Part shown: positions 61,592 through 61,728 of the stretch, in pieces
Position numbering within the stretch: position 1 is the first letter of the stretch
Layout: each line of letters starts with the position of its first letter
Source of the DNA: Escherichia coli
Lineage (GTDB): Bacteria; Pseudomonadota; Gammaproteobacteria; Enterobacterales; Enterobacteriaceae
Assembly: GCF_024502345.1 (NCBI RefSeq)
Contig: NZ_JALDNN010000001.1
Direction: 5' to 3' (one strand)
DNA length: 64,000 nucleotides
Made by a program: the position numbers and the translations under genes
Notes under the pieces: generated by a model
Told to the model about the DNA's origin: nothing
Database searches by the model: none
Seen by the model: only the letters and a program-made list of their open reading frames with translations

Positions 61592-61678
61592 ATGACTCAC
61601 ATCGTTCGCTTTATCGGTCTACTACTACTAAACGCATCTTCTTTGCGCGGTAGACGAGTGAGCGGCATCCAGCATTAA
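61592..61678 (+). CDS. leuL: leu operon leader peptide (28 aa, four consecutive Leu codons)
   Basis: [28 protein letters not shown] followed by attenuator hairpin. Confidence 0.88.
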
Positions 61679-61698
61679 GCCAGCACGCAGTCAAACAA

Positions 61699-61728
61699 AA
61701 AACCCGCGCCATTGCGCGGGTTTTTTTA
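61699..61728 (+). terminator. leu attenuator (Rho-independent terminator)
   Basis: AACCCGCGC-cattg-CGCGGGTTTTTTT hairpin plus U-run between leuL and leuA. Confidence 0.8.

Follow-up and report, generated by a model that had tools for sequence, protein, structure and literature searches.

The DNA analysed here almost certainly contains a ribosome-mediated transcription attenuator, namely the leuL leader of the leuLABCD operon of E. coli. The window, by which we mean the whole stretch of 64,000 nucleotides, had received a first-pass annotation that placed an intact leu operon attenuator upstream of leuA, and this reading is supported by Rfam, Pfam and NCBIfam matches, by synteny, by identity with K-12 and by a predicted antiterminator. 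The attenuator is already known, having been described around 1979-1981, and the K-12 leader on which experiments were done has the same sequence. Our own basis is the leader's features, its family membership, the K-12 identity and a predicted three-state folding, while pausing, stalling and termination are taken from the literature. For this genome, the result means that the leu operon is under normal leucine control, and its value lies in a correct annotation.

The Rfam family Leu_leader (RF00512) matches positions 61578-61727 on the plus strand with 145.8 bits against a gathering threshold of 50 (E = 4.5e-32), and the match is full-length, covering model positions 1-148 of 148. Downstream lies the first regulated gene, leuA, encoding 2-isopropylmalate synthase, at 61771-63342 (+); its 523-aa ORF is so annotated and scores 1045.9 bits against NF002084, the NCBIfam LeuA equivalog (cut-off 748). 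The gene order is that of E. coli: sgrR-sgrT-leuDCBA-leuL on one side, leuO-ilvI-ilvH(N)-cra-mraZ on the other. When a 321-nt query around the leader was compared with 5426 complete E. coli genomes, one copy was found in 5399 of them, annotated as leuL plus leuA (3 of these 5399 matches sit on records labelled plasmid). The whole query is 100% identical to many O157:H7 genomes, and none of the variants seen in divergent E. coli strains touches a Leu codon, the GCGCGG segment or the terminator.

The leader peptide ORF, leuL, extends over 87 nt (61592-61678, +; 28 aa plus stop), from an ATG at 61592 to a UAA at 61676-61678, as judged from its translation, the E. coli annotation and two protein families: the peptide scores 76.5 bits against PF08054 of Pfam (cut-off 25) and 80.9 bits against the NCBIfam equivalog NF007397 (cut-off 59). 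Its Shine-Dalgarno sequence, GGAG, lies at 61580-61583 (+), 8 nt 5' of the ATG. A leader peptide with LLLL had been claimed here and is indeed present, its four leucines being encoded wholly by CUA at 61619-61630 (+). We assign this run of control codons as the ribosome stall site on the strength of the sequence, codon usage, homologues and published pausing in E. coli. Of all Leu codons, CUA is used least in the window's 33 long ORFs (53 of 1513 Leu codons, 3.5%), so that four in tandem are expected with a probability of 1.5e-6; CTACTACTACTA occurs a single time in the 64 kb when both strands are searched. LLLL by itself is not rare, given that the six-frame translation of the window holds 8 such runs. 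This count speaks for a different reading, in which the mini-ORF is coincidental and the hairpin behind it is an intrinsic terminator that acts constitutively, or an insulator that separates leuA from transcription on the leuO side, with no conditional read-through. We give that reading next to no chance. The improbability of the CUA run stands against it, as does the retention of this codon choice in 105 of 106 leaders among the matches listed in a survey of other genomes.

That survey was a DNA-pattern scan of species-representative genomes with CTNCTNCTNCTNAAYGC-N9-GCGCGG, which returned at least 120 loci; 106 of the loci listed are leu leaders and the remainder are chance matches in unrelated phyla. 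The listed leaders come from Escherichia, Salmonella, Citrobacter, Enterobacter, Klebsiella, Raoultella, Kluyvera, Kosakonia, Erwinia and relatives. Although the pattern accepted any CUN codon, all of the 106 listed leaders have CUA x4 except one, which has CUA x3 plus CUU. An alignment of 98 of the listed sequences (A1) and a set of 97 distinct leaders for folding were used in what follows. Among these listed matches, the terminated-state structure is 81% paired in A1, compared with 38-47% when the partners are slid along the alignment, and the GGAG Shine-Dalgarno sequence is at least 90% conserved.

Upstream of leuL, we infer that the hexamer TTGACA at 61529-61534 (+), a perfect -35 consensus, forms the leu promoter together with a strongly conserved block at about 61546-61566. 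The -35 hexamer is at least 95% conserved in 105 distinct regions upstream of Enterobacterales leu leaders among the matches listed. The putative -10 hexamer, TAACTC at 61552-61557 (+), is a weak match to TATAAT that lies 17 bp after the -35 and within the conserved block. We take the transcript to start near 61565, about 27 nt 5' of the leuL ATG, as in the K-12 leuLp annotation. A consensus promoter and terminator scanner, run on the plus strand of 61000-62000, called no leu promoter and no attenuator terminator. We suspect that the promoter was missed because its -10 is a weak match, and the terminator because extension of its stem through A-U pairs uses up the T-run; caution with such a scanner is warranted for terminators flanked by A-tracts.

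A mechanical ORF call of 63 aa (61487-61678, +) was considered as the true leuL and rejected. The annotated, family-matched peptide begins at 61592, and the ATG of the longer ORF is placed 5' of the conserved -35 element and is therefore not the true start. Mechanical calls elsewhere in the window behave similarly: those for ilvI (602 aa, 57966-59774, minus strand) and leuO (336 aa, 60008-61018, minus strand) both begin 5' of the annotated start, at an earlier in-frame ATG. As for the limits of the attenuator itself, those first proposed (61592-61728) begin precisely at the leuL ATG and end one base beyond the U-run, and to that extent they hold; they omit the Shine-Dalgarno sequence and the 5' strand of the outer stem described below. 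The 5' part of the leader falls outside these limits, for the Rfam match already begins at 61578 and the probable transcript start is near 61565.

The intrinsic terminator, or attenuator proper, occupies 61697-61727 (+), as placed by folding, Rfam positions and a published 3' end. Its arms, AAAAAACCCGCGC (61697-61709) and GCGCGGGUUUUUU (61714-61726), form a G+C-rich hairpin of 13 bp around a CAUU loop, with the core CCCGCGC/GCGCGGG, and the 3' side of the hairpin continues into a run of seven U (61721-61727). The G+C-rich hairpin followed by a U-run that had been noted from the sequence is therefore borne out at these positions. The hairpin has a predicted energy of -20.2 kcal/mol and a probability of 0.99 at equilibrium, and its core is invariant in the 97 listed leaders. 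The U-run ends 44 nt before the leuA start at 61771. A constitutive terminator at that distance would silence an essential biosynthetic operon; furthermore, leuO is divergent, so that nothing upstream is in need of termination. Both points favor a conditional terminator, that is, an attenuator.

The free leader is predicted to fold into a protector, an outer stem and the terminator. Its minimum free energy of -56.6 kcal/mol compares with -37.6 ± 3.9 for dinucleotide shuffles (z = -4.85), and 0 of 200 shuffles were as good. The protector, or anti-antiterminator (61602-61665, +), is a long interrupted stem whose helices in the MFE structure are 61602-61611:61656-61665 and 61617-61623:61649-61655, and it sequesters the GG at 61649-61650 of an antiterminator arm. 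Among the listed matches, the second helix is 98% paired in the 97 distinct leaders, and about 20 leaders carry a compensatory UA-to-CG change in it. A ribosome that stalls on the control codons would cover the 5' strand of the protector, and masking that strand switches the predicted fold. Within the protector sits a small hairpin, CGCA/UGCG (61633-61647, +; 61633-61636:61644-61647), which is present in the MFE structure and invariant in A1 among the matches listed; we assign it as the pause hairpin. In the outer stem, the region of the stop codon is the partner of the region that holds the Shine-Dalgarno sequence and the AUG. RNAalifold applied to A1 missed both the outer stem and the antiterminator, and its structure was limited to the terminator, the small hairpin and the inner helices of the protector.

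The outer part of the terminated fold has a feature of its own. The leuL start region UUUAAUG (61588-61594) pairs with CAUUAAG (61673-61679), which spans the last codon and the UAA, and the Shine-Dalgarno sequence sits in the adjoining outer helix. The three pairs that involve the AUG are preserved in 85-95 of the 97 homologous leaders listed. It is tempting to speculate that this pairing of start and stop regions might limit the leader to a single round of translation.

An RNA polymerase pause is predicted for this leader at about U61659/G61660. A NusA-enhanced pause in leuL behind a small hairpin, with a half-life of 27.9 s, was reported in RNA Biology in 2022 (PMC9291695), and the published 50-mer around it is an exact match to 61611-61660. 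The G-10/Y-1/G+1 pause consensus, as read from the sequence, fits G61650, U61659 and G61660. In the same publication, compensatory mutations did not restore pausing and the mutants were inconclusive (PMC9291695).

The first-pass annotation had proposed that the attenuator would be refuted by an absence of alternative pairing regions. A mutually exclusive pairing, 61645-61650 with 61704-61709, is in fact predicted, and it is specific to the stalled state. The 5' arm of this antiterminator, or preemptor, is GCGCGG (61645-61650, +), which pairs with 61704-61709 in the MFE structure of the masked nascent RNA. The 3' arm, CCGCGC (61704-61709, +), is shared with the terminator 5' arm and invariant in the 97 listed leaders.

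How this pairing is seen depends on the folding model. A sliding 5' mask standing for the ribosome, applied to the whole leader at equilibrium, left the terminator at a probability of 0.99 at every mask position. This constancy is what a constitutive terminator would give, and it is the other point that speaks for one. It also means that equilibrium folding is blind to the switch and that the mechanism of an attenuator must be kinetic. We therefore dropped whole-leader equilibrium folding as a test of the switch and replaced it by folding of nascent RNA truncated at 61709 or at 61713, where the terminator 3' arm is still absent, again with a 5' mask as the ribosome. The kinetic, co-transcriptional character of this model is imposed by us, and the switch is visible in that model only.

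Without a mask, the nascent RNA forms the protector and leaves the terminator 5' arm largely unpaired (mean P 0.27-0.35). Only when the mask edge lies between 61612 and 61645, the range expected for a ribosome with its A and P sites on 61619-61630, does the MFE structure contain 61645-61650:61704-61709, which closes a multi-helix antiterminator; the pairing probability of the terminator arm is then 0.62-0.85 with the RNA ending at 61713 and 0.43-0.85 with the RNA ending at 61709. Once the mask edge reaches 61648 or beyond, as for a ribosome that has moved on, the pairing is lost (P 0.04-0.08). For the six antiterminator pairs themselves, the predicted probability is 0.00 in the free leader, 0.98 with a stalled ribosome and 0.00 with the ribosome at the stop codon. 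Such specificity for the stalled state argues against a constitutive terminator. When the 66 nt that separate the Leu codons from the terminator were dinucleotide-shuffled, an equally large switch from free to stalled was found in 5 of 300 shuffles; the stalled pairing alone was matched in 16 of 300, which makes this test on a single sequence only moderately significant.

The homologous leaders extend the prediction. Among the listed matches, the 97 distinct Enterobacterales leaders, each folded separately, have a median antiterminator probability of 0.00 when free, 0.91 when stalled and 0.00 at the stop, and the stalled value exceeds 0.5 in 94 of the 97. The six core pairs are invariant, and therefore without covariation support, the 5' arm GCGCGG being in any case fixed by the search pattern that was used to collect the leaders. 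In the alignment of listed matches, the helices inside the antiterminator structure of E. coli reach only 49-56% pairing. Together with the invariant core, this means that alignment counts neither support nor refute the antiterminator, and per-sequence folding was used instead. The lowest stalled values belong to a leader of S. enterica subsp. arizonae (L048, 3910-4080, minus strand), with P = 0.19 for the antiterminator core as against the median of 0.91, and to two Trabulsiella-like leaders (L063 and L120), with P of about 0.4. These three leaders may use a different antiterminator register.

Our folding model assumes a ribosome and does not prove it, which leaves some room for attenuation sensed without a translating ribosome, through a T-box-like leader, a leucine riboswitch or an RNA-binding protein. 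Gram-positive leu operons do use T-box leaders, and this too counts in favor of such a sensor. We nevertheless consider it extremely improbable here. At the gathering threshold, Leu_leader is the sole Rfam family matched in the leader region, and no T-box or riboswitch model matches there; the leader also has a Shine-Dalgarno sequence, an ATG and a peptide that belongs to a conserved family. Experiments on the identical K-12 sequence point the same way. Masuda et al. (eLife 2021, PMC8384417), working with leuL-leuA cloned from MG1655, found by ribosome profiling that ribosomes pause on CUA x4, and the synonymous CUA-to-UUA substitution altered the response, reducing reporter activation from 11.5-fold to 2.7-fold. 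In their RNA-seq data, density is 29-fold lower over leuA than over leuL, a drop that shrinks to 4-fold under impaired CUA decoding (PMC8384417). Read-through in vivo that depends on leucine and charged tRNA has thus been reported for the K-12 sequence to which this leader is identical (PMC8384417), and the same reporter and RNA-seq results argue against a constitutive terminator. By Term-seq, a transcript in E. coli was found to end immediately after leuL (PMC9023263). The original model is credited in these papers (PMC8384417, PMC9023263 and PMC9291695) to Wessler & Calvo 1981, Keller & Calvo 1979, Carter 1986 and Bartkus 1991.

Ribosome-mediated attenuation at this leader would then proceed as follows. 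Transcription would begin about 27 nt 5' of the leuL ATG, and the polymerase would make the hairpin at 61633-61647 and pause near U61659, until a ribosome starting translation of leuL released it. With CUA-reading tRNA-Leu charged and plentiful, the ribosome would pass 61619-61630 and reach the UAA at 61676-61678. There, GCGCGG (61645-61650) would either be covered or be recaptured by the protector (61602-61623:61649-61665); the terminator hairpin (61697-61726) would form and transcription would end in the U-run (61721-61727). With CUA-reading tRNA-Leu scarce, the ribosome would stall on CUA x4, and its footprint would keep the 5' strand of the protector open. The freed GCGCGG would pair with CCGCGC (61704-61709) once this is transcribed, so that no terminator forms and the polymerase reads through into leuABCD.

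By analogy with rnTrpL and peTrpL of Sinorhizobium, either the 28-aa LeuL or the leader RNA left by termination, about 160 nt long, could have an additional role in trans. There are precedents for trans-acting sRNAs and leader peptides derived from attenuators (PMC6614838, PMC7298713). The leader RNA is about 29-fold above leuA mRNA under leucine sufficiency (PMC8384417), and the peptide outside LLLL is moderately conserved (Pfam family), both of which would suit such a role. This conservation is explained by RNA pairing, which constrains the same nucleotides, and nothing in the present analysis was found in support of a trans role, which we judge improbable as an addition to attenuation in cis.

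Four other Rfam matches were seen in the window. PssrA ("Plasmid-encoded Shigella sRNA A") matches 40007-40096 on the minus strand over its full length with 105.5 bits (threshold 69); the match is chromosomal, at the ftsA 3' end and ftsA-ftsZ junction and on the same strand as both genes, a place that the family name does not fit. The other three also pass their gathering thresholds. The tp2 sRNA matches 15272-15385 (plus strand) with 103.9 bits. STnc40 matches 34291-34360 (minus strand) with 84 bits and has a terminator-like hairpin at its end, and naRNA4, a REP-type element, matches 33811-33887 (minus strand) with 60.5 bits, barely over the threshold of 59.5.

Compared with K-12, no difference was found within the leader. 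Positions 61560-61770 of the window are an exact substring of E. coli K-12 MG1655 (100% identity), and K-12 leuL has the same peptide, CUA x4, terminator, position before leuA and synteny. The larger segment 60950-61800 is 97.2% identical, with 22 mismatches and 2 gaps; given the identity of 61560-61770, all of these differences fall outside that stretch. Judged from this comparison, the leader is under much tighter constraint than the leuO-leuL intergenic region upstream of it (60950-61560).

The leu leader of Salmonella enterica shares CUA x4, the AAACGCA...UGCGCGGUAG pause/protector segment, the CCCGCGC/GCGCGGG terminator and the protector/preemptor/terminator logic, while several residues of the peptide are different. 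Work on the Salmonella leader is cited in later papers to Gemmill, Keller and Calvo 1979, Carter et al. 1986 and Bartkus et al. 1991. The trp, his, phe, thr and ilv attenuators of enterobacteria belong to the same mechanism class, but each senses another amino acid. In enterobacterial attenuators of this class, tandem cognate codons lie in a leader ORF, translation is coupled with transcription through a pause hairpin, and the antiterminator and terminator structures exclude each other. Among them, the leu leader is unusual in relying on a rare codon, CUA, rather than a common one (PMC1183508).
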